Position numbers and translations under genes: made by a program | Notes under the pieces: generated by a model | The model's database searches: none | What the model was told of the DNA's origin: nothing | Seen by the model: only the letters and a program-made list of their open reading frames with translations | UHGV virus genome: UHGV-0212524 | Length of the DNA: 64,000 bases | Strand: one strand, 5' to 3' | Source of the DNA: a virus | Shown here: positions 29,563 through 63,459 of the stretch, in pieces | How positions within the stretch are numbered: the first letter of the stretch is position 1 | Layout of the letters: the number at the start of each line of letters is the position of its first letter

Positions 29563-30469
29563 CTTTGCTTATCCTTTTACGCTCTGCATAAATCACGCGT
29601 TTAATGTACTCGTAAGCACCTACCCCGATAGAGCAAGCAAGCTGATTGCACCCACCGTTTAAGATAGCCGGTGCATTCTGAAGCTGATGTTCTGTTCCAT
29701 CTGCGTTCAAATACAACTCTTCGCTACAGACATTACACTCGTTTTCGAAAATCTTGCTGACAGACACGCCGCACGATTCTCCGGTTTGGACGTTCAGCCG
29801 TTCCATATTCTCCTGAATCTTTAAATAACCATAAACGAAGTTCATGATGTGATCGGGAGACAACGGTTTTGGCATTTGGGCATCAAACATCAGAGAAAAC
29901 GCACGGGGACGATAGTGGTACATCGCACGATGTAAATCCACAATATCTTCATACCAGCGCTTATCGGCTAACTGGTCACGCGTAATCACAGCCCAGGTTT
30001 GGAAGTTATCGAGTTCGTATAACGCTTCCAGTGCTTCGTGGCTATCCTCTTCAATAAAGCGCATAAAAGGGCGCTCAGAACGTTTGTAGCCATCAATTGA
30101 TACAAACACATGCTCAAAGTCTTTTAGCAGCGTAAGATGCGATTTACGCAGTTTTAAGCCGTTGGTATACAAGTGATGCTCAAGGTGCGGATGAGACACT
30201 TTCAGTTCGTTAACGAAATCCTCAATCTTACGTTGGACGAGTAGCGGTTCACCACCCGTCCAATGTATTTCCTTAATAGCTGGATTCTCTTGTAGTAATT
30301 CCAGGATACGTTCGCGTTGAAAAGCACGAGACGAATCTTCACGATTCATGTAGTAGGCTCCACCGCAGAAACTACAGTCTAGGTTACACTTAGACGTCGT
30401 AACTACGGACAATATAGTGGGTTTATCGTACAACTTCGTCGAGATCCTGGATTCCACATTGTCTATCAT
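29552..30469 (-). CDS. radical SAM enzyme (second, shorter; possible twitch/partial SPASM)
   Basis: 305 aa; CNLDCSFC (Cx3Cx2C), TGGEPLL, C-terminal Cys (C..CNVC..GGCNQLAC); 11-nt overlap with next gene. Confidence 0.75.
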   Translation of the reverse strand: MIDNVESRISTKLYDKPTILSVVTTSKCNLDCSFCGGAYYMNREDSSRAFQRERILELLQENPAIKEIHWTGGEPLLVQRKIEDFVNELKVSHPHLEHHLYTNGLKLRKSHLTLLKDFEHVFVSIDGYKRSERPFMRFIEEDSHEALEALYELDNFQTWAVITRDQLADKRWYEDIVDLHRAMYHYRPRAFSLMFDAQMPKPLSPDHIMNFVYGYLKIQENMERLNVQTGESCGVSVSKIFENECNVCSEELYLNADGTEHQLQNAPAILNGGCNQLACSIGVGAYEYIKRVIYAERKRISKDEQ

Positions 30470-32581: not shown

Positions 32582-33787
32582 TTATTTCGTACCCGCTTCC
32601 GCCTGTACGTCATCACGAGACGTCAGGTTAGCGTTAACGTGTACTGGGGCCTGAACCACACCACCGTATCTCTTGTGGAGATAACCGGTGTGCGGGTTAT
32701 CTGCCGCGATGTGGTTTTGTAGGTTCTGGTTCGCTTGACTGATTGCGTTCGTGTTATTGTTAACTTGCTGTTTAAGCGCATCCAGGTTCTGTTGTACCTG
32801 ATCGATTTTCTGATCGGTTTCTTGACCCTGTTGCTCTAACGCGGCAACACGCTGAATAACCTGATTCAGTTTTGTGTTTAAATCGTTGATGCTCTTTTGC
32901 AGTTGTAACACTAACGAGTTCAGGTTCGCTAACGCTAAGGCCATTTTCTGGTAGTTTTGAGCAACCACGTTAAGTTGGTCGTTCCACGCTTCCAGAGAGT
33001 TGACAACAGCGTCAATACGCTTACCTAAAGCTTCGTCCGCTTTCTTCAGTGCATTGATTTCCGTAATCGTTGCGTCGATGGCAGACTGGACGTCACGAAT
33101 AAGCGCACGGATTTCAGTTTCTGTTAACCCGTTAACCTGATGAATATCAAGATGGTGAACGTTACCGGTTGCGTTGATGTGTGCATTTAAAGCGTCTAAG
33201 AAGTCATTTTTCAGGCTTTCTAAAATCGCTTTAATGTTCTCTAACTGTACCGCGTCACCGGAACTGATCGCATCTTTAATACCCGCCAATACGGTAATGA
33301 TATATTCAAAACCGTAGATGTCACCCACGTCTTTATACGTCGGTGCAGATGGGAATGTATCCGGTACGTTACGCAGGTCTTTAAACGCAATCGTACGGTT
33401 ATCGAGGTTTAATTCAGCAATCGCCTGTTCGATAGCCACAATGTTCGCAGACTGTGGACCACCAACGACCTGCGCAGATACCGTAATATCTGTTGGAATC
33501 GCTGTGTTAGTGACCACCACCGCCATAACAATCTCGCGGTTTTTAGTCAGCTTTTCATAAGTCGGGTGTGCAAAAATCAACTCATAATCGGTACCACGTT
33601 CGTAGGTTGCATCCGGTCGGTTAGCAACACGTAAACGGAACGTGTCCGCAAAGAACGGGCCGTCAGGAAAAGCAAAAGCACGGTTTACTTTACCTGTACC
33701 TAACGTAATCTGACGCTCTACAGCGTTAGACGTTAGCGAGCCCGTTAAATCTAAAGGATATTGATAAACAATGGAGGCCATGGCCAC
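32582..33787 (-). CDS. tail fibre-like protein with coiled-coil C-terminal half
   Basis: 401 aa; N-terminal FPDGPFF..RLRV....TDYEL module shared with three upstream giants; Q/N/L-rich coiled coil. Confidence 0.7.
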   Translation of the reverse strand: MAMASIVYQYPLDLTGSLTSNAVERQITLGTGKVNRAFAFPDGPFFADTFRLRVANRPDATYERGTDYELIFAHPTYEKLTKNREIVMAVVVTNTAIPTDITVSAQVVGGPQSANIVAIEQAIAELNLDNRTIAFKDLRNVPDTFPSAPTYKDVGDIYGFEYIITVLAGIKDAISSGDAVQLENIKAILESLKNDFLDALNAHINATGNVHHLDIHQVNGLTETEIRALIRDVQSAIDATITEINALKKADEALGKRIDAVVNSLEAWNDQLNVVAQNYQKMALALANLNSLVLQLQKSINDLNTKLNQVIQRVAALEQQGQETDQKIDQVQQNLDALKQQVNNNTNAISQANQNLQNHIAADNPHTGYLHKRYGGVVQAPVHVNANLTSRDDVQAEAGTK

Positions 33788-33821
33788 TCTCCTTTATTCG
33801 AGACGTCCTTGTCTCGAGTCA

Positions 33822-36800
33822 TTAAGATGTAAACATAAGATTGAACTGGAGTTTGTCGATATCGCGAGTTTCCGCCGGATTCACGGCATCGTACGCGGTC
33901 GCTACGTAAACGGTTAGCGTACCGTTAGCGTAAGACGATTTCACCGGTGGGTTAGTTCCGGTCTGACCATCTCGGACAATGAGCGTAGGTTCACTCGGGA
34001 GATTGTCAAACTGACCCTTGACCGCTTTATACACCAAACCAGATTGCGCAGCCAGTTCAGTGTCCGTAAAGACAAAGAACGGTGTGTCGATATCAGCCTG
34101 CTTGACGATGGTGTTCGATTCAACGTCAATCAACTGTACCGCCCCAAACTTCGTACGATAACTTTCATACTCGTTCTTCGGAATAACGAACGTGACATGA
34201 ACACGAACCTCCTCGGCAGGTTTAAACCCACTGTGCTCTTTTTCCAGGTACTGGTTGGCGGTTAACGTTACCGTTTGTTCAGTCATCGTACCACCGGCCT
34301 GGTTTAATGCATACCGAGCTTCAACAATACCGGTTGGTGCAGCAAGTCGTAGTTTCAGAGCACGATTCGCCGTTCCTGGATTACCTGGCACCTGAACACG
34401 CAAACTCAATGCTAAGTAAGCATTCGTTCCGGTAGTCGGTTTCGTATACGCACCAATCCATTTCATGTTCGCAGACGCTGCCTGCATGTTCTCAGAAGCA
34501 GTGGCTGTCGCAATGTTAGCAGCTACCGCTTTCTGCCAGAATTGGTCAGCGCAGTTCTCATACGCTACCCTGGCCACGCTCTTATAACCCGAATACGTTT
34601 CCTGAATTGGTAACTTAGGACGCGTCGTAATGCCGGACAGTGAACCCCATTTCTGACCGTCAACATACCCTTCACCTTTCGACGCAGACGCCGTAGGTGC
34701 TTTAACGGGCTTGTTAACCAGTGTTAATAGAGGACCCGTCTTTCTGTCAAACGCTGCTGCTACATCGTGTTGGTCGATAATTGCTGCGTGGTCTTCCAGT
34801 TCTTTCACACGACCCAAACGTTTTACTTTGTCGATACTGATACCAGTAATACGGCTGGAATCGGTGGTTACTGTCCCAACGAACAGTCTTGTTGAGGTAT
34901 CGGCTAACTGCTCCAAACCGATGCGGTATTGCGCGGTAGAACCCGACACCTCAGCGTGCACGTAGAACGTCTGGTTAGCGTGATTGGATGGGAACTCACT
35001 GCTTAAATCCACAGACCACGTTGGGAGTGTGTAACTGCTGCTACCGAAATCTAATTTGACTTCTTCTGTCAAATACAGAATCCAACCTTCCGCTGTTTCC
35101 ACACCGGCAATAATAACCGCCTGACCTCCGGTTGAGAACGTCGTGTCGTTAACGAACTCTGCGGCTGTATACGCGTTACCTGAACAGAAAACACGGTCAG
35201 CTTTAGAGTAAATCAACGCCATCTTGTCCCAATCACCGGCACCCATATAGCACCCAGATTCTGGTCTATGTTCAGGGGCCATCTGCCGTAACTGTGATTT
35301 ACCTGCAACGCGTGTCCAACCTGAACCAGGGTCGAAGGTATATTTAGCAGCGTAGCCCAGGGCGTTTAAGTCCCCGATATTTCGGGTAGTTAACGTATAA
35401 GGTAACCAGATACCGAAGTTAGTTCCATCCGCAGATGCAAAAATAGGCTGCCCCACGCGCCTCGTTTTACCTCCCGCTCCCCCATTTAGTGACTGATAAC
35501 TTAAACCATAATCGAGGTCTAAGAACCAGTCCACCAACTTAAAGGTGGCTGAGTTGAAACGTAAGTAGCCGTTCTCTTTAGATGGGCTCACCATGAAGTA
35601 ATAGATGTCAAGAATTCGACGTCCGTTACTTGAGGTTTTCATGCACGAAACTTGCAACAAGTCAAATTCGCACACGGTGTTGATACCCAACATCCAAAGA
35701 GCAAACAATGCATTACCGGTTTGATGTGCAGCACTAATACGTTCGTTCGCGTAACCATTTGCTTGACCAGATGGCGCACCGTCAACGATCATCCGAATCA
35801 TTTTCTGCCGATCGGCTTCTTCTAGCGTTAAGCGTTCGGAAGACAATGCGAAGTTACCGTAGATGTTACGATACGGGAACGTTTCTGCTTTGGTCAAATA
35901 CCAGCCGTTCAACTGTCCATGACGCTCCTCAGGGATCATGCACGCAGCCATACAGCTAAGCTGCTCGTAAAGCGTTGGATCGACTTCACGACGGTTGTTG
36001 TTCGGACCGTACCCACTATACCCAGAAACATCGTAAGGTTTGTTCGGATCAACTTCCACTTCGATCGTGTAACGGTTACGAGGGTTCGATAACCAGACCT
36101 TATTCGAACCACCAATCCCTACTGGATAAGACAAACCGATGGTGTAAATGGAGCCACGGCCTTTATCCCAGGTAAACGTTCCTTCGCCCGAGGTGTTGTT
36201 TGGGTTATCGTAACGCAGATAATCGAAAAGCTCTCTGCCTTGTGTACTCTTAATAGAAACATTAGGCATTTGGTCCGCATCGGCAATTTGCCAACAGGAA
36301 AGCATCATTCCTGTACCGTTGGGTTTAGCATACGTCGCGAAACAACGGTTGTTTGCCTGGCCACCACCCCACTTACGATTGGTTCCTACAGTTGAACCAT
36401 CTGCGAACGAGAGTGTAGTAGTAGCATCAGCCTTGATGGGGAAGCGTTCGCGGCCTTCTAACGTAACCTTGCCCGTCAACGTATCGATTGTAAAACTTGT
36501 TGCCCATTGAAGGAAATTAATCGTCGTACCGTCGGCCGCTGCAAACCACACGGTAGGCATATGGTTCACACGAATCACGCTATCGCGCACAGCACACGCG
36601 TGGTTACATTCTGGACCGTGAACAAAGTTACGCCCGATCGTCCATTTAGCACGACCCTCCGGTGTGAGATATGTAAAGAATTGACCCGTTTGCGACTCTT
36701 CGGTTTTCTGACCAATACGCAAGCAGAGGTTATCTCCGAATTGTCCCATCTCGCCGGTTAGAGTTACACGTTCAAATTCTAACGTAGTGTTAGTAGACAA

Positions 36801-39008
36801 ATCGGCCTTACGTAGACGCCAAGCTGCTACGGCGTAAGCGGAGTTATTTACCGTTGAACGGAGAAGATAAACGTAGTCCTCAACCAACACGACATCGTCA
36901 GCTTCCGGCCACGGGTTCCAGGTTTGTTCCACAGTACCACTGGGGTTGCCGTTACGGTACACGGGCATCGTAACGCGACATACCACCGTGTGCTTAGTGT
37001 GGTCCATCGAGCCATTAAACAGCACCAAATAACGGTTATTGTCAGAACCCAGGCAAATAATCGCTTCCTGGCCACCGATCAATATCGCTATTAGGGTCAC
37101 CCCAGGATATTTACTCATCCCGGCAGGGTGATATTTCACTGAGGTCTGCTGCGGATTTACAAACGCGTTTGACGTGTCAATGTCAGCATAGCCGTAATAA
37201 ATAGCTTCCGTACCCGGCACGCCGTTAGAACCGTTACGGAGCGAATAAACCTTACCCTGCTGATACCCAACAACCCCTTTCTGGTAGGACTGGTTTTTGG
37301 TATAGCCTGCGTAGTTACCTAACGCTGGGATAGGTAAGAAGTTCTTGTTACCGAATTTCGCTCCACCTACCGTCCACGCCGGTAAGATGGTATTCAGTTT
37401 ATCAGAGACCTTCTTAATCTCTTTTGCGAACAACCAGCCTTGACGCGACGTGACAGCTTTATCGTTAGTGGTGTCAATTGCATCCCAGAGCTGTAAGATA
37501 CCGTCAACCGTTGCACTACCAATCGGGACGTTATCCAAGTCAGCAGTGGTGTGGGTGTGCGTTTTCAAACTCTTGTTTTTCAACACGTTCGTTAACGCTT
37601 TTGTCACAGGCTTATCACTCGGTATGGTGTTATCCATCTTATCGATACCGAAATCGGTTTTCGTTAAGGTTAACACCATATTGTCGCCTGTTTTAACAAA
37701 CCCTTTACCGTTAACGGTATAGTCATCGTCAACGTACAAGTCCAAGCGGTCTTTTAATTCTGTTACAGCTTTCTGGGAGATAGCAGTACCTAACGCCGCA
37801 GACGTAGAGATATTCGTAATCGAGAACAACCCATAAACTGATTCGGACGCCGTGGGAATATTCGCGTTTAACGTAACCGGGTTAGTCTGTTTTGCGGTAC
37901 CGTACGGTTTTACAGTGTCTGACGCTTTGAAATACGCGTTTGCTTCAAGCAACGTTACTGACGTCAGATACATGTTCACCATTTCTGGTGTAACCAGGTA
38001 CACGGAGTTATAAACTGGCGCTAATACGTCCTGTTCCGACCCCGAGTGAACCCAAAGCGTATTCAGACCCGCACTGAATTCAACCGCTAAACCCGATTCG
38101 TTGTTGTCCTGGTCTGCTTTAATCACCAACGGTTGTGGCGAGGTAATTAACCACTTATCACCACGAATACTGATGATGTGGCCACCTGACGTTTTAAACG
38201 TTAATTCATTACCGTTCGTGGTACCCCATCGACCGTAAACGGTGCCGAGGGCTTCACCCATTAACTGGTCAACGTCCGATTGCTCAATACCCGCTGAACC
38301 CATCAGCGTAGCCAACTCGTCAATCGTCAACCCAAACGCTTTTGTAGCGTCAACAGCACGACCTAATACCGGGAGAGCAGCAATGTCATCAGTGGTATAA
38401 TGATGCGCGTTAGGGTTACGGTGATGCTGGTATAACTCTTCGTCGAAAACCTTTTTACCGTTCTCGTAAATCAAGTTAGTGACTTCACTGAACGCAGCAT
38501 CTAATTCCGTAGAACGTTTGATGATTTTCTTGCGAATGTCTTCTAACGCCTTAACAACCTCATCCCTCAGAATCGCTTCTTCTAAGTTAGCAGGCGGGTC
38601 GATAGGCTGAATAACCGGCGCATACGCCATTAGTTCAGACCAGTCCACGTTACGTGGGTCTTTCAGGTCAGTACGAACTAAGAACTTCCCGATTTCAGAT
38701 TGCGGTACACGGTATTGACGTGCTACCCCTAAAATCTCATATTCGATTTCTGTTGCAGTAAGCAACATAAACCCGCCGTAAATCTGATCTTGTTCAGCTT
38801 CTGCGAGTTCTTTAAAGTAATAGCCTAAATAGTAGTCCAACCCCTCAATCAGAGTACGACGTCCGTTAGGCGCGGTATCGTCGGCTACTGTGAGTTTTAA
38901 TCCGATACGATAAAAAGGTCCTTCAGGCGGAATGACCACGTTAAATCGGTTAGGGTACGTCGCTGTGCTTAGCGTACCGTTAAACTGCGCCGCGTCTTCT
39001 CTCGGCAT
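33822..39008 (-). CDS. giant tail fibre/spike-like structural protein (1728 aa)
   Basis: N-terminal IPPEGPFY..LKLTV....GLDYYL module; AGGAG RBS. Confidence 0.75.
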   Translation of the reverse strand: MPREDAAQFNGTLSTATYPNRFNVVIPPEGPFYRIGLKLTVADDTAPNGRRTLIEGLDYYLGYYFKELAEAEQDQIYGGFMLLTATEIEYEILGVARQYRVPQSEIGKFLVRTDLKDPRNVDWSELMAYAPVIQPIDPPANLEEAILRDEVVKALEDIRKKIIKRSTELDAAFSEVTNLIYENGKKVFDEELYQHHRNPNAHHYTTDDIAALPVLGRAVDATKAFGLTIDELATLMGSAGIEQSDVDQLMGEALGTVYGRWGTTNGNELTFKTSGGHIISIRGDKWLITSPQPLVIKADQDNNESGLAVEFSAGLNTLWVHSGSEQDVLAPVYNSVYLVTPEMVNMYLTSVTLLEANAYFKASDTVKPYGTAKQTNPVTLNANIPTASESVYGLFSITNISTSAALGTAISQKAVTELKDRLDLYVDDDYTVNGKGFVKTGDNMVLTLTKTDFGIDKMDNTIPSDKPVTKALTNVLKNKSLKTHTHTTADLDNVPIGSATVDGILQLWDAIDTTNDKAVTSRQGWLFAKEIKKVSDKLNTILPAWTVGGAKFGNKNFLPIPALGNYAGYTKNQSYQKGVVGYQQGKVYSLRNGSNGVPGTEAIYYGYADIDTSNAFVNPQQTSVKYHPAGMSKYPGVTLIAILIGGQEAIICLGSDNNRYLVLFNGSMDHTKHTVVCRVTMPVYRNGNPSGTVEQTWNPWPEADDVVLVEDYVYLLRSTVNNSAYAVAAWRLRKADLSTNTTLEFERVTLTGEMGQFGDNLCLRIGQKTEESQTGQFFTYLTPEGRAKWTIGRNFVHGPECNHACAVRDSVIRVNHMPTVWFAAADGTTINFLQWATSFTIDTLTGKVTLEGRERFPIKADATTTLSFADGSTVGTNRKWGGGQANNRCFATYAKPNGTGMMLSCWQIADADQMPNVSIKSTQGRELFDYLRYDNPNNTSGEGTFTWDKGRGSIYTIGLSYPVGIGGSNKVWLSNPRNRYTIEVEVDPNKPYDVSGYSGYGPNNNRREVDPTLYEQLSCMAACMIPEERHGQLNGWYLTKAETFPYRNIYGNFALSSERLTLEEADRQKMIRMIVDGAPSGQANGYANERISAAHQTGNALFALWMLGINTVCEFDLLQVSCMKTSSNGRRILDIYYFMVSPSKENGYLRFNSATFKLVDWFLDLDYGLSYQSLNGGAGGKTRRVGQPIFASADGTNFGIWLPYTLTTRNIGDLNALGYAAKYTFDPGSGWTRVAGKSQLRQMAPEHRPESGCYMGAGDWDKMALIYSKADRVFCSGNAYTAAEFVNDTTFSTGGQAVIIAGVETAEGWILYLTEEVKLDFGSSSYTLPTWSVDLSSEFPSNHANQTFYVHAEVSGSTAQYRIGLEQLADTSTRLFVGTVTTDSSRITGISIDKVKRLGRVKELEDHAAIIDQHDVAAAFDRKTGPLLTLVNKPVKAPTASASKGEGYVDGQKWGSLSGITTRPKLPIQETYSGYKSVARVAYENCADQFWQKAVAANIATATASENMQAASANMKWIGAYTKPTTGTNAYLALSLRVQVPGNPGTANRALKLRLAAPTGIVEARYALNQAGGTMTEQTVTLTANQYLEKEHSGFKPAEEVRVHVTFVIPKNEYESYRTKFGAVQLIDVESNTIVKQADIDTPFFVFTDTELAAQSGLVYKAVKGQFDNLPSEPTLIVRDGQTGTNPPVKSSYANGTLTVYVATAYDAVNPAETRDIDKLQFNLMFTS

Positions 39009-39042
39009 CGTAAAGACTCCTACTTTTAAATAAAATGGATAC

Positions 39043-39064
39043 CCCTCCCCATTACAGGGAGGGG
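39043..39064 (-). terminator. intra-operon hairpin between two giant structural genes
   Basis: CCCCTCCC..GGGAGGGG inverted repeat; T-rich tract follows on the minus strand before the next RBS. Confidence 0.5.
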
Positions 39065-39102
39065 TTACCTACGGACACACAACTGCCCGCAGGCAGCCTG
39101 TC

Positions 39103-42100
39103 CTAAGTACGATCCCCTAACTGCTTCCCGTTAAGTTCACGTTTCAGTACAGAAAGTATCCATTTCCACGCTTTACTCGTGATATGGTACGGATTGCGTT
39201 TCTCCATTAAGAACTGCTTTTCACCGCTACGCAGTTCGAAGCTCTGCGCATTAAGCTGATCCTGACGAGTGCTTTGCTCATCAGTCACGTCTAACGAACA
39301 GGTAAAGTTAAGCTCGTAACCTTCGGGATTATCACCCGGCGGGTCTAAGACAATATAGATGTCCTGACCTACACGTAAGTCGGTGGCCGTGATACTAATC
39401 GCTTTACCTACGTCAGCACTGGTTGACAGAGCAAACTCTGCGCTATCAGTAGACGCTAAGAATGGGTCTTTCCCTGCGTCGCCGATAATCACCTTACCTG
39501 GCCAGTTACTTTTTATCGTTCCTGACACTTTTGCAATTCGGTACTGTTGTTTATCGGCACCTTGTGCAAAACGGAGAATGAGTTTGTGACGATAACGACT
39601 TGCAGCAGCCTTAGTCGTACTCCACTCGTTGTTCCAGGAAGTATGCAGTTCGTTTTTCTTCGCCATCAGCGCACCGCGAGACAGCTTACGATCAAAGAAC
39701 TGCGCAGGTAACTGCCCATCGTGAGAAACCGCAACGTTTCCCTGACCAGTTGGCAAGGCAATGCTCTCCGTGGCACGGTATTTTTGACTAATCTCATAAG
39801 TCGCAGGGTCAATCACAGACTGACTATAATCAGCGTCTTTGTTATCAGCCAAATACCCAACGGATGAATCCAAATACGACTCAAACAACGAACGTAAGTA
39901 ATGATACTTATCAATGTCGATGTTGTTCGTAACCGGATCAATCAGTGCGTGGCTAATTGTTACTCGGCATTTCGCGCTCAGTTCTTTAAACGACAACCCT
40001 ATTCCGTCACCGGTGAAATAATCCACCAAGTCAAACGGGAATTGAATCTCCAATTGACGTTGTTTAACTGTCGTCGTCCCAAACTGCGAGAACGACAACG
40101 CTAAACGTAACACACGCGTACTTACGTTATAACGGTAACGAATCATCCCACGAGGTGCATGGTTTGCAGAGATTTTATCTCGGGTGGCACCCCAGCCAAT
40201 CAAATCGAGAATCGCGGGGTTGGTTTCTTCACCGTTGAACAACACGTCCTTAAACGTTGCATTCACCGCTGTTTCCCCAGACTCTTCCATTACCAACGGA
40301 ATGTCAGTAACGTCTGAAACTGAACGGGAACCAATCCCCAACTTACACGCTTTGTCCGTCAGGTCAATACGTACATAACGACGTTTAACACTCGCCCCTT
40401 GCGTTGACGTACATAGCACCAAATCTGGTGCGGCAGTAAGTGCTTGTGTTCCACCGACGTCGTCAACATCGAATGCAAACGAACCTTCGAACGTCGGTGC
40501 GTTGTTTTCTTTCGGGTTAAACGGTGTAAACCAGCAATACGGTGTAGCACCTTCAGGCATCACAACGTACTGAAGACTGGACTTCACGTTTTGGTTGTGT
40601 GCGTAAGTATAAAGACCGCGACTGACAAGATGGAAAACATCACCTGTTCCGGCTGTTAACGCTTTCCTAAAGATACACGCTCTTGGTTCGGCAATAGCAC
40701 GGTTTAATAACGGCAAACGTGGGTTATCCGTTAACGCCCAGTCCACAGAACTGAGTCCGTGTGCTTTACGCGTGTCGATGTGTTCACTAACCTCGGCACT
40801 TTTCCCGAAATCAAACGTGGTTTCGAACCCTACCGTTTTATTCGCGTAATTCTCACCAGCAACAATATCAACGTAACCGATATAACCACGTTCAGGATCA
40901 ACTGCGATGCTCTGAATCGGTTCAGCACGCGAATACAGAGAGCCTGTGAGCATGTTAACGTACAGATAGTGACGAATCCCTACGTGCGTGGTAACAAACT
41001 CCTGGAGAAGCTCTACGCGCGTTTCAGGGCCACTGAAGTAAACAGGGTAATCCCCATCGTAAACTTCAAACTGTACCGCTGCGGACTTAGCCGTGTCACT
41101 ACATTCAGCTTTAACCGCAATCGTGTAGTTTTCAACGTCTGCTGACGTTTCATACACTGCAACGAGTGGAGATTCGCCTGAAGCTGCTAGGTTACCGTTG
41201 ATATAAACGGTTACCGGTCCGCCCCCTGCGGCATAAACCCAGAGCTTCGATTGGTACGCCCTTACACGCGTTTTTGCCAGAACCGTAACGACTGACTGGT
41301 CACCCATCTGTGTAGCAGTTTTACCTACCGGGACAGACTGGAACCCCATCAACGGCGGTTCTTCAATACCCGTCCAGTTGATTCCCGTACCGTTACTCAC
41401 CTTACCCGTAGGCCAGGTCAGTTCAAGCTGGTTATTCGGTGAGAACCAGTTAAACATCGGGGTGGTTTGCAGGTCAATCGCACCAGTAACGGTGCTGTCG
41501 CCTTTCGTCCCGTCCAGCAAATAGAAATATTTCAAATCCTGAACGGAGATTGACGTACCCTGGCTATTAAAGCGCCAGTCTGCACCTTTCACAGCAGCAA
41601 AATCAGTTACCGTGCCTTCTTTCGCGTTTGCAATTGCAGCAGCCACCACATCTAAACGGGCTGAAAGCTCTTTTAAGATGTTCGGTACCACCGCACGGTT
41701 TTCAACTAAGCCGTTCTGGTTAGTTGCGTAACGACCGATGCCGTAAATCGACTGCGAGGCTTTATAAATGCCTAACTCTGACCAGTCGTGATGGTGTCCG
41801 ACGTCTGCTAAACCACTAACCGAAGCATTCAGTGCGGTTGACAACGGTTTGTCGAGGTCTGCGGTGTTATCCGCTTGCCCTAATCCCAGGTCAGCTTTTG
41901 TGATTGTCCTGGAACCGTCGTTCATCGGTTTACCGTTAATCATGGTCGTTTTAGTCACGTACCCTGATAAGTCGGTTGAATACGGCGTTAATGACGCAGG
42001 GGTTGCAGCAACCCCAACCGTTTCTGTGCCTTTACCGGTTTTAAGTTTAACAACACCTTTTTCAGCGGTGGTCGCTTTCGTCGGGTCGATAGTCCCCACG

Positions 42101-43287
42101 ATAGGATCGGCACGAGAACCTTTACCGGTAAAACTAATCCCGTTACGGCCTTCGATATACACTTTGGAGTCATCAGGATCGCTACCGCCACTCCCGCCAG
42201 CATCAGGGTCTTGCTGATACTCCATCAGCGCTGTGGTGGTCAACAACGGGTTACCGTTCAGAGTGAGTTTGTTCATCCCTAAAGCGTCACCGGTTGACTC
42301 GATACGTAAGGTGTTTTTACCCGCACGCCAGTTAATGTAACGTCCCGCACCTGTGCCTTCCAGATGCCCTACCGCCAATACCACAGAACCGTTGGATTTT
42401 AACGTAAAGCCATCATTCGCAAAAATGATTTCGGACTCACCATTTTTCGAACGGAACTGTGCGCGGTTTCCAGACACCGTACAGTTAAACACGCCCCGTA
42501 CTTCCGAAGAAATCCAGTGGGAGATATACGTGTCAATAACTGACTGTGGTAAACGAAACGCTTTCAGTTCTTCCGTTAACGCTTTTAATTTTAACCCGTA
42601 CGCCATAAAGGTGTCAGGTGTTTTCAGGTTAACGGGATGGGCATTAATTTGTGCGCTCGTGGTTTCGTGCGGGTTCGTCGCGGCGATATGTGCTGGGTAG
42701 TTAAACGCTTCGATTTCTTTCCCCAACGCAGCCACTAGCGCTTTAACTTCGGCTAATTTATCTTTAATTAGCTGGTTAGCATCATCGGTTTTCAGCTCGA
42801 TATCGTGAATCGCTGACGCTAAATATTTTTTGTTCAGCAAGTCCGCCCAGGACGTTGCCGCTGGCGTAGCCGGGTATAACGACGGTCTACCGTCTAACAA
42901 CAGCCAGTCTGCACTGACCGGGTTATTCAAATATTTCACCAGCTCGTCGAGCATGTCAACGAACGGGTCGTAGAACGTACCGCCGAGCATTTGCCCTTCA
43001 AAGGTTACAATGCCTTTGATGGATGGGTTGATAAGGTGTACCCCACAATACACGTTGGCTGCTACCGAGTCATCCAGTTCCGTCAGCTGATATTGCAGTT
43101 CGTAATCCACCCCACGGCTCAGTGGGGTGGTTGAACCTGGTTGTCTGACGACTAAGTCTTCAAAGAACGGGCGATGGTCTAAAATCACCACCCGGTCGTT
43201 GTTGTTTTCTGACCCGATGATACGCTCCTCTAAGAAGTGATTCTCGGTTTTCGTCCCCCGAGGATCGTAAGGATACGCTTTCATCAA
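39103..43287 (-). CDS. giant tail fibre/spike-like structural protein (1394 aa)
   Basis: N-terminal DHRPFFEDLVV......GVDYEL module. Confidence 0.75.
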   Translation of the reverse strand: MMKAYPYDPRGTKTENHFLEERIIGSENNNDRVVILDHRPFFEDLVVRQPGSTTPLSRGVDYELQYQLTELDDSVAANVYCGVHLINPSIKGIVTFEGQMLGGTFYDPFVDMLDELVKYLNNPVSADWLLLDGRPSLYPATPAATSWADLLNKKYLASAIHDIELKTDDANQLIKDKLAEVKALVAALGKEIEAFNYPAHIAATNPHETTSAQINAHPVNLKTPDTFMAYGLKLKALTEELKAFRLPQSVIDTYISHWISSEVRGVFNCTVSGNRAQFRSKNGESEIIFANDGFTLKSNGSVVLAVGHLEGTGAGRYINWRAGKNTLRIESTGDALGMNKLTLNGNPLLTTTALMEYQQDPDAGGSGGSDPDDSKVYIEGRNGISFTGKGSRADPIVGTIDPTKATTAEKGVVKLKTGKGTETVGVAATPASLTPYSTDLSGYVTKTTMINGKPMNDGSRTITKADLGLGQADNTADLDKPLSTALNASVSGLADVGHHHDWSELGIYKASQSIYGIGRYATNQNGLVENRAVVPNILKELSARLDVVAAAIANAKEGTVTDFAAVKGADWRFNSQGTSISVQDLKYFYLLDGTKGDSTVTGAIDLQTTPMFNWFSPNNQLELTWPTGKVSNGTGINWTGIEEPPLMGFQSVPVGKTATQMGDQSVVTVLAKTRVRAYQSKLWVYAAGGGPVTVYINGNLAASGESPLVAVYETSADVENYTIAVKAECSDTAKSAAVQFEVYDGDYPVYFSGPETRVELLQEFVTTHVGIRHYLYVNMLTGSLYSRAEPIQSIAVDPERGYIGYVDIVAGENYANKTVGFETTFDFGKSAEVSEHIDTRKAHGLSSVDWALTDNPRLPLLNRAIAEPRACIFRKALTAGTGDVFHLVSRGLYTYAHNQNVKSSLQYVVMPEGATPYCWFTPFNPKENNAPTFEGSFAFDVDDVGGTQALTAAPDLVLCTSTQGASVKRRYVRIDLTDKACKLGIGSRSVSDVTDIPLVMEESGETAVNATFKDVLFNGEETNPAILDLIGWGATRDKISANHAPRGMIRYRYNVSTRVLRLALSFSQFGTTTVKQRQLEIQFPFDLVDYFTGDGIGLSFKELSAKCRVTISHALIDPVTNNIDIDKYHYLRSLFESYLDSSVGYLADNKDADYSQSVIDPATYEISQKYRATESIALPTGQGNVAVSHDGQLPAQFFDRKLSRGALMAKKNELHTSWNNEWSTTKAAASRYRHKLILRFAQGADKQQYRIAKVSGTIKSNWPGKVIIGDAGKDPFLASTDSAEFALSTSADVGKAISITATDLRVGQDIYIVLDPPGDNPEGYELNFTCSLDVTDEQSTRQDQLNAQSFELRSGEKQFLMEKRNPYHITSKAWKWILSVLKRELNGKQLGDRT

Positions 43288-43297
43288 AAAATTCTCC

Positions 43298-46200
43298 TTA
43301 ATCGCGAATGATTACCGCCTGCACTTTATTGTTGGTGTCGATAAACGACATTACGCGCTCCTTGTTAAGATAAGGAGGTATCGGTAACGCAGCGTAATCC
43401 GCCAGGCTGTTATTAAACTCGGTTGCCACTAGCGCATTAAGCGTTTCAGGGTCTGAGCTTGTCCCGGCCAATTCCATGACGCGTACACGATTTAACGAGG
43501 AGTAGTTGCTGATATAATCCAACAGCGTACCGTAGAGTTTGTTCCCGGTTATGCTGTCTGTCGTAGAACGGATATTAGCACGCACTTCGTCCTCATAAAG
43601 TCCCCCTAAACCGTAGTAAATAGGGGTGTACGGATCGTTAACGATAGGCGCGAGGTTGAACCCAGTTAAACGGTCGGTCAGCGAGATTTTCTGCGTAGTA
43701 CCACCTGCCGCCGTACAGCTTACGTATTTATCTGCCGCAGACAAATACACCACAATAGTGTAAACAGTACCTGCTAAGGTCAGCGTTGCGTTAAACGTTA
43801 ATTCGTTATTCGCACCACGCGTGTGGGTAAATGATACGTCAGGATGTAACGTACTCCACGGTGCTGGGGTAACGCGTTTGGTCGGCGTGAAACCTAACAC
43901 CACGGATTTCCCGTTACCGAAGTTTAAACCAAACCCGGCGTAACAATACTCACCGTTACTGTCGGTTAAACGATAACCACGGGTGATAAGTAACGACAAC
44001 CGCATAAACTCGTCTTCGGTATTTTTCCAGCAAGCCAGGATGGTTTCTAGCACCGTTCCGGTTTTTGCGTTGCTTTCGGTTTCCCAACTGACTCGCATCC
44101 CCGCATTGTTAAATACCGGGAACAGGTTGTGGATAAACCCGTGAACGTTATCACTTACCCCTTTTGCATCAAACACCCACTTCGACGCAAGCTGGTCGTA
44201 TTTCACACCATCGAGTGCTTTATATCCACCGCCAACCACATAACGCCAGTCTGCTTCGCCACGCACAACCGCTTGAAGTCCAGAAGCCCAGCAGGGCGCA
44301 CCTACTGTTAAATTGCTTAACCCCAGCACTGCACGTGAAGCAGAACGCTGAATGTGTGCGTTATCATTGGCGACGTGGTCTTTCAGCTCACGGAAATCGC
44401 CTAACCGTGTCACGTTACGTAGTTCAGTAACGAACACTTCAGAAAGGTCGTTAATACCGATTAGACCCACGCGCGTCATGGTATCCGTTTCAGCCTGACT
44501 GTAGCTGTCGTGAATAATGTACTTCGCTTTGTTATCGACAATGTCAACAAAAATCCCTGCGTAAATTTCCTTATTCAGATTCGGGAAACGTTCAGTGACG
44601 TTAACCGACATCAACGGCACGTCGTACGTTTCGCCGCCAACGAAATACGTGGAAGCAGGAAGTGTCACTAGGATTTTGTCTTTAACCGTAACGTCAATTA
44701 GGTCGTTACCGGACTTACCAAAGCGAATAATGTCAACGCGCGCACCCGAGTCAACCCCGCCGACGGTATTCTCCAAATCTTCAATCTGGGAAGTCTGCGC
44801 CATCACCACACTACCGTCGAGCGCTAAAGTGGCATCATCCACTTCCAGACCGAATTTAATCAGGCCCCGTTTCGTGGTGTCTGCGTTCGCAACACCGAAT
44901 ACGGAAGACGGGTGTTGGTGAACCTTCGGTGAGTATTTGTCCAGCTCGGTCTGCTGTGCAACAGAAATCGGTAAGTCAACGTCCGGGGTATTCGCAACGT
45001 TACCTAAACCAAAGGTAATTTTGTCGATAGTAACCGAACTGGTAAGCTGCATGTCGTTGATGTACGACTTGGCGGCAACTAACTTACCGGTAAACTCTGC
45101 GTCCAGTTTTTCAATTAACGCAGGGGTTGCTGCGAGGTTTTCAGCCGTACCGAATTCGTCCGTTAACTGCCAACACGCTAACGTAGTAACGTCTTCGGCA
45201 ACCGGAAGAATAAACGTTGCGACAAACGGCGACGCTTTAATCCCGCTACCCGTAAGTTCCACTGTAGCTGTAGTTGCACCGTAGAATAATCCCGTACCGC
45301 CTGCGGTATTGCCCGGCAAATACGGCGCTACCGTAGTGGGGTCTAAGAGTTTCTTACCGCGCCACAGTAATCCACGGTCATCAGGATATAGCACAAGCTG
45401 GTTATCTCCCGCTTGCAACGTTACCGGGTTGTTACCCACGTTAACGTCAGTAGAACCTTGACCGATGAACTTAATGGATTTCGGATCAACGACAAACTGA
45501 GCACCTAAACGTCTCTCGTCAACAACGCCAGGTGCTTTCTTAATGGTAACCGTGTTACCTTTGTTTTGCGAACTAATATTGACGCCGTCAGCAACATTAT
45601 TGATCAGCGATTTAAAGTGGTGCTGATTCTCTAATGCTTCTAACGCAGCGTCCATGTTATTGAAGTTAATCCGACCGCTATACGTTTTACTGTTTACGGT
45701 AATAACGACGTCAAACACATTCCCTGTACGCTTCAGTTGAAAACGTAGCGTAAAATCCCCATCCGGTATTGCCGGATTAGGAGCTTGCGAAATATACCGA
45801 ACTGCCGGTACAGGACTACCGTAACCGTGCAACGCCAGTTCGATAGTAAGAGTACCGGACCAGACTTCACCGGTAATCTCTACGTACTTACCGGAGTTAC
45901 TACCGGGATTTTCGTAGAAACGAAAACCAACCCTACCGACCGCTTCATTACCAGACGCTGTTTTACGTCCGGTAACAATAAAGTCAATATCTTGCAGGTT
46001 GGCAGGTACCGCATTAAAGTTAGCACTGAAACCGCTTTTCGTTCCTGTATAACGAAGCGCACCGTGATATCTGTGGCCACTACTAACATAGCTTTCACTA
46101 AAATAAGGACTCACGTACTTCGACATCGACACTGGGTCGACTTCAGTAGTAAATGACGTAAAGCCGGGGAGCGTTGTAATCGTGCCGTTAACGTTCTTGC

Positions 46201-47620
46201 TCGCTGATTCACGAAGCAGTTTTTTCTGGGCGGTTAACGTTGCCTGCGTTGGGTACTTAGCGTTTACGTAATCGGTTAATTGCTCCTTAGTTTTCCCGTA
46301 GGCTAATGCTGCGTCGGATGCAATGCCGTTTAATTCTAACGCACGAATCGGACCCCAGGTGTCAGCGTGTGGGTTATCCTTACGGGTGACGTGTTCGTGC
46401 GCAGGCGCGTTGCGATAGAGCTGTTCTACTAACTGATGGTACTTAACGATTAACTGATAAACGTCGTTACTTACGTCTGCTTCTGGCGCACCAGGTAACG
46501 CAAGGAATTGAGCATAATCGTTCTCAGCCGCCCACCAGTTTAAGTTAACGTTGGTTTTGTACTTCAGCCACTTCGCAACATCCGTTTTGGTGTAACCTGC
46601 TGAGAATTCGTCTGGCGGTGTGTCAACGTTAAAGGTGTAGTCCATGGACTGTTTGTTAGTCGTCACCTCGATAACGTATACACCGTTACCCGGTTGACGA
46701 ACAACGCTAAACGTTAATTCGCCTTTTAATTCATCGTCGGTCAAACCGTTGATTAACGTATAATCATAATCGGTCGAACCACTGCCTAACGCAACTGTCA
46801 GTCGTAGGCTGATTTTACGTTGTTTTAATTGGAGACGAAGGATACTTGCGCCACCGTTCGCGTAGCACAACATCCAATCGATTTGTTCGTTCGGATTAAT
46901 ACTCCCCATATTCGGAAAAATAGCCGGAATACGGTATTTCATCGACAGGGAATATTCATTTAACGTGGTGGTTTTGTACGTAACGGAGAAACGGCGTTTA
47001 GCGGTATTGTAAGTATACCCACCTTTGTTGTCGTACGTTGCGTACTGTTCAGACGTGATAACCGTACCATTAGCACGATGCTCGATATCTAACGTGTTAC
47101 GTGCAATCGGGTCTACCCGATTCACCACGTTACCTAACGAATCACCTAAGCCTGCAATGGCCTGCATTAATTCCAGTTCACCTTTCCAGTTTTCCCAGTC
47201 GAACTGAATATCGACCGGTGGAAAGTAAACTTCGCCGATAACGGTATCCCATTGACACGCAGACGGGTATTTATCTTTATTGAGTTCGCGTTCTGCGGTA
47301 ATCTGTTCTTGGGTCGCTTCACCACAACCTACGGCGTGGTAATCTACCGTGAAATTCGATTTGTATTTGTCATTAACAATCCAAATCATCCCGTGCACGA
47401 GATAGGCTGTGCGCAACATACCGGTCTCGTACGGGTGTGTAATAACGTAATCGTCGCCTAAGGTCAGTATTTTGCCGCCGCTCTTGACCACCAGGGATGT
47501 GGTGAAAAAAGGGGCGTGGGCAGGTACCAACATTCGGTACTTCGTACCAATGACGGCGACCGCTTCACCGGTTATTTTATTCCCCGGTTCTTTGAAGTGT
47601 GGGTCTAGGACGACAGCCAT
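43298..47620 (-). CDS. giant tail fibre/baseplate-like structural protein (1440 aa), first gene of minus-strand operon
   Basis: N-terminal PAHAPFFTTSLVV......GDDYVI module; 10-nt gap to next gene. Confidence 0.75.
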   Translation of the reverse strand: MAVVLDPHFKEPGNKITGEAVAVIGTKYRMLVPAHAPFFTTSLVVKSGGKILTLGDDYVITHPYETGMLRTAYLVHGMIWIVNDKYKSNFTVDYHAVGCGEATQEQITAERELNKDKYPSACQWDTVIGEVYFPPVDIQFDWENWKGELELMQAIAGLGDSLGNVVNRVDPIARNTLDIEHRANGTVITSEQYATYDNKGGYTYNTAKRRFSVTYKTTTLNEYSLSMKYRIPAIFPNMGSINPNEQIDWMLCYANGGASILRLQLKQRKISLRLTVALGSGSTDYDYTLINGLTDDELKGELTFSVVRQPGNGVYVIEVTTNKQSMDYTFNVDTPPDEFSAGYTKTDVAKWLKYKTNVNLNWWAAENDYAQFLALPGAPEADVSNDVYQLIVKYHQLVEQLYRNAPAHEHVTRKDNPHADTWGPIRALELNGIASDAALAYGKTKEQLTDYVNAKYPTQATLTAQKKLLRESASKNVNGTITTLPGFTSFTTEVDPVSMSKYVSPYFSESYVSSGHRYHGALRYTGTKSGFSANFNAVPANLQDIDFIVTGRKTASGNEAVGRVGFRFYENPGSNSGKYVEITGEVWSGTLTIELALHGYGSPVPAVRYISQAPNPAIPDGDFTLRFQLKRTGNVFDVVITVNSKTYSGRINFNNMDAALEALENQHHFKSLINNVADGVNISSQNKGNTVTIKKAPGVVDERRLGAQFVVDPKSIKFIGQGSTDVNVGNNPVTLQAGDNQLVLYPDDRGLLWRGKKLLDPTTVAPYLPGNTAGGTGLFYGATTATVELTGSGIKASPFVATFILPVAEDVTTLACWQLTDEFGTAENLAATPALIEKLDAEFTGKLVAAKSYINDMQLTSSVTIDKITFGLGNVANTPDVDLPISVAQQTELDKYSPKVHQHPSSVFGVANADTTKRGLIKFGLEVDDATLALDGSVVMAQTSQIEDLENTVGGVDSGARVDIIRFGKSGNDLIDVTVKDKILVTLPASTYFVGGETYDVPLMSVNVTERFPNLNKEIYAGIFVDIVDNKAKYIIHDSYSQAETDTMTRVGLIGINDLSEVFVTELRNVTRLGDFRELKDHVANDNAHIQRSASRAVLGLSNLTVGAPCWASGLQAVVRGEADWRYVVGGGYKALDGVKYDQLASKWVFDAKGVSDNVHGFIHNLFPVFNNAGMRVSWETESNAKTGTVLETILACWKNTEDEFMRLSLLITRGYRLTDSNGEYCYAGFGLNFGNGKSVVLGFTPTKRVTPAPWSTLHPDVSFTHTRGANNELTFNATLTLAGTVYTIVVYLSAADKYVSCTAAGGTTQKISLTDRLTGFNLAPIVNDPYTPIYYGLGGLYEDEVRANIRSTTDSITGNKLYGTLLDYISNYSSLNRVRVMELAGTSSDPETLNALVATEFNNSLADYAALPIPPYLNKERVMSFIDTNNKVQAVIIRD

Positions 47621-60987: not shown

Positions 60988-61431
60988 ATGGAAATTTATT
61001 TGTTGAACGCACTTTCTAAAATCGGTGAAGAACAAGCGAAAGATTTACTCGCACTCCATTACCGTTACTTAGATCACCAAGCAACGATGCTGAAAATCAA
61101 AACCGCTGTACCGAAATTAAACGTGCGTCAACTGATCGAAGGCAACTGTGTTGTTCTGATTTATATCGACGATGTTGCGGTAGGTTATTGCAGTTACCGT
61201 AATCGCAACGGGGTACTCAAAATTCGTTCGTTATACGTGCTGCCTGATTACCGTCAGCGCGGGGTAATGAAAGAAATCTTCAAAGCGATAGCCGCTGATG
61301 AAGCATTCGGTGAAATTGCCATTGGGATGTACACGAAGTGCAAAGAAGCGAAAGAGTATTTCATTCGTCGTGGCTACAAAGCAACCTATTCTCACGATAA
61401 AGAATGGGTGGATTTCAGCAAAACTTTCTAA
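60988..61431 (+). CDS. GNAT-family acetyltransferase-like protein
   Basis: 147 aa; VLPDYRQRGVMKEIFKAI resembles the GNAT acetyl-CoA-binding motif. Confidence 0.45.
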   Translation: MEIYLLNALSKIGEEQAKDLLALHYRYLDHQATMLKIKTAVPKLNVRQLIEGNCVVLIYIDDVAVGYCSYRNRNGVLKIRSLYVLPDYRQRGVMKEIFKAIAADEAFGEIAIGMYTKCKEAKEYFIRRGYKATYSHDKEWVDFSKTF

Positions 61432-61734: not shown

Positions 61735-62074
61735 TGAACCACTGGATAACAGCGACATCTTACAAATCTGTTATCAGTGTCACGAAATCGGTGGCAGTGA
61801 ACTTACGCGGGTTAATAAACTACTGTGGCTGATTCCAGAAATCGAATTACCGTTCGTTAAACCGAGTTTGTGGCGTCGTGGTGCGTGTCGTGAAGCGTAT
61901 ATGCTGTCAAGATTTAACATTAATCTGGAGAAGGTCTGGGAGAAGATGAACGACGCCCAAACCCGAGAACAGATTACGCACACGCTGGAATTGCACCTTG
62001 CCATGAAACGCCTCGGTCTCGAGCATGAAGGGCTAGAGTCCGTTATCAGTCAATGGGTGAAAAGGAATCGTTAA
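61700..62074 (+). CDS. hypothetical protein
   Basis: 124 aa; AAGGAG RBS; overlaps upstream ORF end. Confidence 0.5.
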   Translation: MLPGTQTPYLFSEPLDNSDILQICYQCHEIGGSELTRVNKLLWLIPEIELPFVKPSLWRRGACREAYMLSRFNINLEKVWEKMNDAQTREQITHTLELHLAMKRLGLEHEGLESVISQWVKRNR

Positions 62075-62147
62075 TGTCTAAAACGTATATAGCGATTTTG
62101 GTTGAGTTAGCGATTGGCGGAACGCGGTTTATCCCTGTGCATCAATT

Positions 62148-62672
62148 ATGCTTACCTCACTCGGTAAGACCGTTATGCTAACGATACTTCCAGAATCGGT
62201 TATTGACAACGACCTGTTTAACGCCCCTGAGCGCTTCAAGGTCGTTACGATAAATTGCGTAGGGGCAATGGGTCGGGGTATCGCTTTAGCGTGCAGAGAA
62301 CGCTATCCTGAGCTTTATCAGGACTACCGAGAACGTTGCTTCGCTAACGAAATACGAATAGGGAATGTGTACGTTTATCCCGAGGAAAACTGCATTCTCT
62401 TACCAACAAAAACACATTGGAAACTGAAATCCCAGGTTTCTTATGTTATCGCGGGTATCACCGCGTTGGCAGATGCCGCAGAAAACTTAGAGGGTGGGGT
62501 GGCTTTACCGCCGTTAGGGATGGCTAACGGTTGGTTGACAAAAGCTGAACGTCAACAAATCTTTTTGTTTATCGAAAAGAAACTCGTACCAAGGAGACAA
62601 CAATACTGTTTCTATTTACCCGATACGCTTTACCAAGAAGCAAAACCTTTAATTCCAAACCTTTTTAAATAG
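62148..62672 (+). CDS. macro-domain-like protein (putative ADP-ribose binding/hydrolase)
   Basis: 174 aa; VVTINCVGAMGRGIALA and GVALPPLGMANGWL resemble the two glycine-rich macro-domain loops; start uncertain. Confidence 0.45.
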   Translation: MLTSLGKTVMLTILPESVIDNDLFNAPERFKVVTINCVGAMGRGIALACRERYPELYQDYRERCFANEIRIGNVYVYPEENCILLPTKTHWKLKSQVSYVIAGITALADAAENLEGGVALPPLGMANGWLTKAERQQIFLFIEKKLVPRRQQYCFYLPDTLYQEAKPLIPNLFK

Positions 62673-62772
62673 ATATTATCATTAGGGCACACAACAAAGG
62701 AGTTCCAGCTGTCCGCGCCGTGATTTCGTTCTACGGAACACGGAAATGTATAAATCCAACTGGAGAACTAGT

Positions 62773-63459
62773 ATGTTTCGTATTTTCTTTCTTTTACTGG
62801 TAACACTTTTCGCGTTTAACGCATACGCATCCAAATCCGCGCCCAATGCCAAACACCATCGTGAATTCGAAATGATTCAAGACCGTTTCGAACGGGTAAA
62901 ACCGTTGATTGTGGAAATCTCTCGAAAGCAGGGTGTCGATCCTAATTTGATGACCACGCTAATCTATCGAGAGTCACGGTTTAATCCGAAGGCGTATAAT
63001 CGAACGTCTAAAGCGCACAGTCTGGTTCAGATGCTACCGAGCACAAAGCGCAATTTGCTAAAACTCTACGGTGCCGAAATCGGACTTAGTCGCAATGCGG
63101 ATTTGTACAATCCTCGTAATGCGGTGCTATTGGCTTCCGTCTACGTTAAACATTTAGAAAAGGGGTTGACTAAACGACTCAAACGCAAGCCCACTATTGC
63201 AGAAATTGCATTGGCTTATCACTGGGGTGAAAGTGGTGCACACGCCAGGATTAAAAGCAAGTCTCGGGCAGCACAACGAGAAATGGCGAGCTTTATGAAA
63301 GATGCAACGTTCTACAGTGCGAAAATCGACAAGCCTGTAGCATCTCGTCAGCTTGCGTTTGCGAAGAAACCAGAACGCCAGATTCAGTTAGCGGAAGTTA
63401 ACCGAATTTGGGATACGATAAACACCAGTTTTCCATTTAAACAAGGAGTCACCCTTTGA
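62773..63459 (+). CDS. secreted lytic transglycosylase (SLT domain)
   Basis: Start at internal ATG (GGAGAA RBS); signal peptide MFRIFFLLLVTLFAFNAYA; YRESRFNPKAYN...LVQMLPST fits SLT ES..NP..Q motif. Confidence 0.6.
   Translation: MFRIFFLLLVTLFAFNAYASKSAPNAKHHREFEMIQDRFERVKPLIVEISRKQGVDPNLMTTLIYRESRFNPKAYNRTSKAHSLVQMLPSTKRNLLKLYGAEIGLSRNADLYNPRNAVLLASVYVKHLEKGLTKRLKRKPTIAEIALAYHWGESGAHARIKSKSRAAQREMASFMKDATFYSAKIDKPVASRQLAFAKKPERQIQLAEVNRIWDTINTSFPFKQGVTL

Follow-up and report, generated by a model that had tools for sequence, protein, structure and literature searches.

What does a small macro-domain protein do for the phage that encodes it, and which ADP-ribosylated molecule would it act upon? 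The question is raised by a locus in the virus genome UHGV-0212524, of which a stretch of 64,000 nucleotides (here called the window) was analyzed. An earlier note on this DNA, made from the raw sequence, had drawn attention to a plus-strand open reading frame (ORF), positions 62148..62672, and had proposed that it specifies a macro-domain protein that could reverse host ADP-ribosylation and so serve as an anti-defence factor. The answer considered quite probable here is that the gene is an orthologue of AdfM ("anti-darT factor macro"), a family named by Morgan et al. (Cell Rep 2026, PMC13309987), and that it erases the ADP-ribose which the toxin DarT2 installs on thymidines of phage single-stranded DNA in hosts that carry the DarTG2 system. 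This answer is carried by the fold and clade of the protein, the conservation of its active site, its stand-alone architecture, and its orthology and synteny with published AdfM.

The assignment to a family is based on profiles specific for DarG, the antitoxin of DarTG systems, and on structure, as the generic macro-domain score is sub-threshold. The macro-domain profile search proposed in the earlier note thus had a divided outcome: the Pfam Macro profile (PF01661) gives 20.1 bits (E value 6.3e-4), narrowly missing its gathering score of 22, whereas the DarG-specific profiles, which cover residues 20-164 of the long ORF, match strongly. These are NCBIfam NF048014 (antitoxin DNA ADP-ribosyl glycohydrolase DarG), with 109.7 bits and an E value of 1.7e-31 over the macro half only, and the PADLOC DarG profile (6.8e-32). 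The protein also matches PHROG 335 (2e-30), and several homologues of 77-78% identity carry a precomputed PF01661 match. A phmmer search against all PDB sequences retrieves 5M3I (2.6e-21) and 5M31/5M3E (2.3e-18), which are DarG antitoxin macrodomains of Thermus aquaticus and Mycobacterium tuberculosis (PMC5179494), and the first macrodomain outside the DarTG proteins is yeast Poa1p, at an E value of 0.02. AlphaFold2, supplied with an alignment of 32 sequences, gave a confident model (predicted local distance difference test score, pLDDT, 94.3; predicted template-modelling score, pTM, 0.90) that displays the three-layer α/β/α macro fold. In Foldseek comparisons with the PDB the top matches of this model are again 5M3E, 5M31 and 5M3I, with E values of 1.4e-13 to 2.1e-12, template-modelling (TM) scores of 0.75-0.83 and root-mean-square deviations of 2.2-2.5 Å, the best superposition being on Thermus DarG bound to ADP-ribose (5M3E, TM 0.77/0.83). 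These are followed in the ranking by the Thermosipho DarT-DarG fusion 7OMU and then by human TARG1; in all, 174 entries match at E<=1e-3, nearly all of the 50 listed being macrodomains or macro-scaffold designs. The proposal of a macro-domain protein is therefore upheld by the modelled fold and by matches to DarG profiles and PDB entries that are far too strong to be due to chance. Because its best relatives in both sequence and structure are DarG macrodomains, and because the catalytic lysine and asparagine are retained, the protein is placed in the hydrolytic DarG2/TARG1 clade of macrodomains.

The long ORF specifies 174 amino acids if it is read from its first ATG; the true gene most likely begins nine codons further downstream and specifies 165 (Table 1). 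When the upstream DNA was aligned with that of four related loci, ATG 62148 was found to be replaced by ATA in a relative of 92% identity (L003) and to lie in a segment deleted from a relative of 77% identity (L004), whereas ATG 62175 is invariant across the alignment, including Erwinia phage Asesino. Among 46 database homologues the full-length proteins are 161-166 amino acids long (Asesino gp217 has 166), save one protein of 153 amino acids and one call of 174, the latter in a contig of 98% identity. The long-ORF start was dropped in favour of 62175 since the upstream ATG is not kept in relatives, and residue numbers are counted from the downstream start, so that N27 and K79 correspond to N36 and K88 of the long ORF.

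Both glycine-rich loops pointed out in the earlier note, NCVGAMGRGIA and PPLGMANGW, are present in the ORF as described, and in an alignment they coincide, position by position, with the motifs N-x-V-G-x-M-G-x-G and P-P-L-G-x-x-N-G of Thermus and Mycobacterium DarG and of AdfM from phage PhiKZ; by this alignment they are recognizable as the ADP-ribose-binding loops of the macrodomain. Asn27 is the aligned counterpart of N22 in T. aquaticus DarG (TaqDarG) and of N23 in PhiKZ AdfM, and the TaqDarG residues K29, K80, H82, W83 and G119 have their counterparts in R34, K79, H81, W82 and A117. Mutagenesis of TaqDarG showed that K80A abolishes activity and that N22A, second in effect, markedly reduces it (Jankevicius et al., PMC5179494); K29E and G119E are also markedly inhibitory, and H82A and W83A have little or no effect (PMC5179494). 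Across 32 homologues (35%-92% identity) K79, T78, P-P-L-G and the G119-W120 pair of the query are invariant, and N27 and H81 are nearly so. The alanine at the position of TaqDarG G119 is common to the query and the active PhiKZ AdfM, and the tryptophan of loop 2 takes the place of TaqDarG G122, so that the loop reads GMANGW in the sub-clade of the query, GAGNGG in TaqDarG and GCANGG in PhiKZ. Judged by its residues, the protein has all that an active DarG/TARG1-type hydrolase is expected to have, and the proposed role as a phage anti-defence factor that reverses ADP-ribosylation gains support from the clade, the catalytic lysine and asparagine, and the orthology to AdfM.

The same residues bear on the substrate. 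TARG1 follows DarG as structural neighbour and has the same catalytic lysine, and the substrate-loop tryptophan is invariant in the sub-clade and absent from the characterized enzymes; both would suit an eraser that is broader than, or different from, a DarT2 antagonist, removing ADP-ribose from protein or RNA after attack by other host ADP-ribosyltransferase (ART) defences or toxins (for example those that ADP-ribosylate mRNA), either instead of or besides its action on DarT2-modified DNA. Such an eraser is unlikely, given that in sequence and structure comparisons the scores for DarG macrodomains surpass those for any other macrodomain by some six to nineteen orders of magnitude. W83 of TaqDarG has been proposed to stack on thymine (PMC5179494), and the query has a tryptophan at this position, though phenylalanine stands there in many homologues; DarG2 macrodomains are moreover said to counteract DNA ADP-ribosylation exclusively (PMC13309987). 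The substrate is likely to be narrower than that envisaged in the earlier note, namely DarT2-made ADP-ribosylated thymidine in single-stranded DNA rather than ADP-ribosylated proteins.

A housekeeping role must also be weighed, as homologues are labelled in GenBank and PHROG as "putative Appr-1-p processing protein" or "phosphatase". Here the protein, acting as a phosphatase of ADP-ribose-1''-phosphate or a deacetylase of O-acetyl-ADP-ribose, would remove metabolites derived from NAD, such as those left during infection by tRNA repair or by the turnover of NAD. The weak matches to yeast Poa1p (E value 0.02 with phmmer, 3e-6 with Foldseek) and the GNAT acetyltransferase gene conserved two genes upstream could be read in favour of this role. 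The labels, however, have no experimental origin, having been taken over from the generic name of the domain, the match to Poa1p falls short of that to DarG by about 19 orders of magnitude, the active site is of the lysine-nucleophile DarG/TARG1 type, and scans of the window found neither Tpt1/KptA nor RNA ligase families. A housekeeping enzyme of this kind is considered very unlikely.

If the protein is an eraser of DarT2 marks, is it part of a toxin-antitoxin pair? A DarG antitoxin proper was ruled out: NF048014 is matched over positions 7-154 of 338 only, with a score far under the 250 bits of the equivalog cutoff, the 165-amino-acid protein has no counterpart of the C-terminal domain by which DarG2 binds DarT, and no DarT was found in the window. 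Pfam scans of 64 window ORFs (50 bundled window ORFs were also scanned with PADLOC) revealed no DarT (DUF4433), other ADP-ribosyltransferase, NADAR or Tpt1 protein, and none of these families occurs among the called genes of the syntenic loci. Since the DarT-binding domain is missing and no DarT or ART was found, the protein is an orphan antitoxin-like enzyme. A profile search of 1.84 billion cluster representatives yielded 4,223 relatives at E<=1e-10, of which the best-ranked are about a dozen stand-alone proteins of ~160 amino acids, followed mostly by proteins of 290-375 amino acids with an N-terminal macrodomain. Among ten of these larger relatives that were scanned, two, with 399.6 and 381.3 bits, are full-length DarG that exceed the cutoff of 250, which is exceeded also by a tandem-macro protein (273.9 bits), and one is a DarT-macro fusion (P0073). 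The full-length DarG proteins and the fusion are the closest relatives outside phages, and this make-up of the relatives is consistent with an origin from DarTG2 systems. Such fusions, together with some matches in Streptomyces and Arthrobacter phages that fall under genes annotated as ADP-ribosyltransferase (H26, H40), might suggest an antidote to a phage-encoded ART or DarT-like toxin, guarding the DNA or proteins of the phage itself. The scans of the window and of the syntenic loci speak against an endogenous toxin, and loss of AdfM is harmless to PhiKZ on hosts without DarTG2 (PMC13309987), which together make an antidote of this sort highly improbable.

The genomic setting relates the locus to phages in which AdfM has been described. 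A nucleotide search of 50,697 phage records with window positions 60000-64000 gave no match. The best matches of the window proteins are in SPN3US-like and Asesino-like jumbo phages, and both Asesino and SPN3US are classified in the Chimalliviridae (nucleus-forming phages). The large window ORFs are annotated by PHROG as jumbo-phage tail and virion proteins, and a virion protein of 1,440 amino acids is 52% identical to its homologues in SPN3US and SEGD1. Homologues of the macro protein in Salmonella phages STsAS, SPFM19 and SEGD1 and Erwinia phages Asesino and Stratton show 61-65% identity to it, and those of phiKZ-like Pseudomonas phages ~35%. Contigs closest to the phage come from the Logan assemblies SRR29013974 (98% protein identity) and ERR12526631 (92%) and from Salmonella enterica assemblies (77%), the latter being phage contigs that include one of 226 kb in GCA_014613015.1. 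The phage is probably a new genus-level chimallivirus of enterobacteria. A run of seven genes (SMC/SbcC-like, GNAT, orf78, orf124, macro, SLT endolysin, orf169) keeps the gene order of Asesino gp207-gp219, with identities of 39-70%, and the same order is found in metagenomic and Salmonella-assembly contigs of 77-98% identity. Because this block is collinear, the macro gene is the positional orthologue of Asesino gp217; in BLASTP comparisons the two proteins are 62% identical over 164 amino acids, which is full length (E value 7e-78), and PhiKZ gp104 is 35% identical (E value 4e-28).

The members of AdfM listed in the study that named the family are PhiKZ gp104, PhiPA3 gp108, Goslar gp83 and Asesino gp217, the last being explicitly labelled AdfM in an alignment figure (PMC13309987), and a homologue is encoded by about half of the chimalliviruses (PMC13309987). 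PhiKZ gp104 strips the ADP-ribose installed by DarT2 from the second T of TNTC in single-stranded DNA, the N23A substitution reduces its activity, and it fully rescues DarT2 toxicity in Escherichia coli (PMC13309987). Mutants of PhiKZ and PhiPA3 that lack AdfM lose three to six logs of titre on hosts expressing DarTG2 (PMC13309987). When fused to green fluorescent protein (GFP), AdfM of PhiKZ, of PhiPA3 and of Asesino localizes to the phage nucleus (PMC13309987); import of PhiKZ gp104 was reported to depend on PicA, which recognizes surface residues that co-evolve with the cognate PicA (PMC13309987).

Taken together with these published data, the following course of events can be proposed. During infection of a DarTG2 host, DarT2 would ADP-ribosylate thymidines within TNTC-type motifs of single-stranded phage DNA, and this modification would block phage replication and packaging. 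The phage macrodomain would hold the ADP-ribose by means of its two glycine-rich loops, with K79 catalyzing cleavage of the bond between thymidine and ribose and N27 positioning the substrate, so that unmodified DNA would be restored and replication and packaging could resume. The modification would be erased and the toxin not sequestered, because the DarT-binding domain is absent. It is from homology that we infer an active enzyme, its specificity for thymidine in DNA and its function against DarTG2 in vivo. Import of the protein into the phage nucleus, the site of the DNA, is probable by analogy with Asesino gp217, and is put forward more tentatively than the chemistry. As the biology was already published in 2026, the protein is a new copy of a known counter-defence.

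Several points weigh against this account. Identity to the biochemically characterized PhiKZ AdfM is just 35%, and the published data on the SPN3US/Asesino sub-clade concern only the localization of Asesino gp217 (PMC13309987). The score against the generic Pfam profile falls short of the gathering score, as given above. Neither chimallin nor PicA is encoded within the window (in Asesino, ChmA is gp039, far from gp217), so the phage family was placed by the taxonomy of its nearest relatives, and both the chimallivirus placement and the formation of a nucleus are extrapolated from related phages. Finally, the tryptophan that is invariant in the sub-clade where TaqDarG and PhiKZ have glycine could change substrate specificity. 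This residue, a conserved C-terminal YLP...IPN tail and a putative micro-protein encoded in this lineage raise the prospect, judged improbable, that the SPN3US/Asesino-type sub-clade is not a simple functional copy of PhiKZ AdfM. If it were so, the features might be signs of a changed range of substrates, taking in other ADP-ribosylated bases, or RNA or proteins modified by defences other than DarTG2, or alternatively of a dedicated partner or an import determinant.

In several SPFM phages of Salmonella the homologous gene is annotated in split fragments of 123 and 152 amino acids, which may mean that the gene is dispensable and decaying in some lineages. The split annotation ("hypothetical protein" twice) is found in SPFM1, SPFM6, SPFM8, SPFM12 and SPFM20 (P0040-P0042, P0045, P0046); in SPFM19 a single unbroken tblastn match (H2, LR535916.1 51448..51939) covers 94% of the query. 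Faulty annotation may account for the split, as may a frameshift or pseudogene in certain isolates. That the protein of UHGV-0212524 is itself a catalytically dead reader or binding module for ADP-ribose, or the product of a decaying gene, is scarcely credible, as the ORF is intact, none of the key residues for catalysis and binding has been lost and the fold is modelled with confidence. The coordinates of the gene, its active-site elements and other features of the window are collected in Table 1.

Table 1. Positions of the AdfM-like gene, its predicted functional elements and further features in the 64,000-nucleotide window
Feature	Position	Strand	Basis or remark
AdfM-like gene, stand-alone DarG2-type macrodomain	62175..62672	+	165 amino acids plus stop
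In-frame 9-codon extension 5' of the conserved start, probably untranslated	62148..62174	+	Alignment of relatives; homologue lengths
Loop 1, NCVGAMGRGIA, including Asn27	62253..62285	+	Alignment with DarG and AdfM
Predicted catalytic lysine K79, codon AAA, inside PTKTHW	62409..62411	+	Alignment; equals TaqDarG K80 and PhiKZ K78
Loop 2, PPLGMANGW, predicted to grip the diphosphate	62508..62534	+	Equivalent to TaqDarG residues 117-122
Conserved hydrophobic mini-ORF of 35 amino acids, MSKTYIAILVELAIGGTRF..., MSKTYIAILVELAIGGTRFIPVHQLCLPHSVRPLC	62074..62181	+	AGGA ribosome-binding site
GNAT acetyltransferase	60988..61431	+	Pfam Acetyltransf_1, 2e-8
SLT-domain transglycosylase	62746..63459	+	Directly downstream of the macro gene
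Radical-SAM protein, first of pair	28228..29562	-	Within the structural gene region
Radical-SAM protein, second of pair	29552..30469	-	Within the structural gene region
T-even-type receptor-binding module	7806..13618	+	Begins with long tail fibre
Gp38 adhesin	12272..13054		PF05268, 3.1e-69
Gp38_N-domain protein	13115..13618		Follows the adhesin
Run of very large paralogous virion proteins	32582..47620	-	Four proteins

The putative micro-protein would be the product of the mini-ORF, which overlaps both the stop codon of the upstream gene (TAATG) and the start codon of the macro gene (ATGCTAA). Four related loci (L002-L005) have the mini-ORF, which is called as a gene in one of them (L005) and is absent upstream of Asesino gp217. 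Over its first 25 codons, comparison with the relative of 77% identity (L004) shows 12 synonymous and 3 non-synonymous codon differences, and this excess of synonymous changes suggests a real micro-protein. As the reading frame overlaps both the upstream stop and the macro start, its translation may be coupled to that of the macro gene.

Further genes of the neighbourhood are of some interest in their own right. The GNAT acetyltransferase gene lies upstream of the macro gene in all relatives examined, and its product in the window is 39% identical to the Asesino ORF at the gp212 position; in Serratia phage Moabite an N-acyltransferase gene adjoins the macrodomain gene. There may be a recurring association of macro and acetyltransferase genes. 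The SLT-domain transglycosylase gene is syntenic with Asesino gp218 ("putative endolysin"), and a second, distinct peptidoglycan hydrolase, a protein with Glyco_hydro_108 plus PG_binding_3 domains, is encoded elsewhere in the window.

Farther away, the two radical-SAM genes are adjacent and slightly overlapping, and their products match Pfam Radical_SAM (4.7e-14 and 8.3e-15) and PHROG 1802. The first of the pair matches a PADLOC pVip-like profile at 5e-12, the best value among two matching members being 1.9e-12. Other window ORFs match PADLOC profiles for JetC, LmuB and similar proteins, presumably owing to long coiled-coil proteins; all such matches, the pVip-like ones included, reflect generic domain similarity and are unrelated to the macro gene. 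The receptor-binding module consists of a long tail fibre of 1,488 amino acids that matches T4-type tail-fibre PHROGs, followed by the Gp38 adhesin and the Gp38_N-domain protein; its make-up points to an exchange of modules with T4-like phages and to a host among the enterobacteria. The paralogous virion proteins (401, 1,728, 1,394 and 1,440 amino acids) cross-match PHROGs 2163, 7449, 7557 and 8078, in an array like that of SPN3US-like phages. DUF7941 was recorded in 6 of the 50 window ORFs scanned together, as a table aggregate in which the members are not named.

With this locus the AdfM family gains a member from an SPN3US/Asesino-like jumbo phage that had not been described and that probably infects enterobacteria, and a first pass over raw sequence had correctly picked out the anti-defence gene. 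The names in use for the family in GenBank and PHROG, among them "hypothetical protein" in addition to the two labels discussed above, are outdated. Phages with an AdfM-like gene should resist the defence of DarTG2-bearing hosts, which is of use for host-range prediction and for the choice of therapeutic phages. No new mechanism is opened, and the sub-clade loop, the tail and the mini-ORF are the only features that leave room for novelty.

Among known systems the closest is AdfM itself, to which the protein is alike in being a stand-alone DarG2-like macrodomain of ~160 amino acids, encoded by a chimallivirus-type jumbo phage, with the active-site asparagine and lysine kept. It differs in that its source phage is undescribed, with a best structural-protein identity of ~52%, and in that its sub-clade is without the 9-residue acidic insertion of PhiKZ AdfM and bears the C-terminal tail, unlike TaqDarG and PhiKZ AdfM. 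With DarG2 of the DarTG2 systems of T. aquaticus and M. tuberculosis it shares the macrodomain clade, the fold and the equivalents of N22, K80, H82 and W83, and presumably also the chemistry, that is hydrolysis of thymidine-linked ADP-ribose on single-stranded DNA; it differs from DarG2 in being phage-encoded, without a DarT-binding domain and with no adjacent DarT, and so resembles the enzymatic half of DarG. AdfN (anti-DarT factor NADAR) of T4-like phages is likewise an orphan antitoxin-like glycohydrolase that erases ADP-ribose from phage DNA (PMC11825919), yet it has the NADAR fold, acts on guanine-ADP-ribose made by DarT1 and occurs in phages that do not form a nucleus (PMC11825919). AdfA of T-even phages and AdfB (ICP1 gp145) are also phage counter-defences against DarTG, but these are non-enzymatic inhibitors that bind DarT directly and are not macrodomains. 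Human TARG1 (C6orf130; 4J5Q, 4J5S) offers the next-closest solved fold and has the lysine-nucleophile mechanism in common with the phage protein, whereas it is eukaryotic, ~17% identical and described as acting on glutamate-linked protein ADP-ribose.

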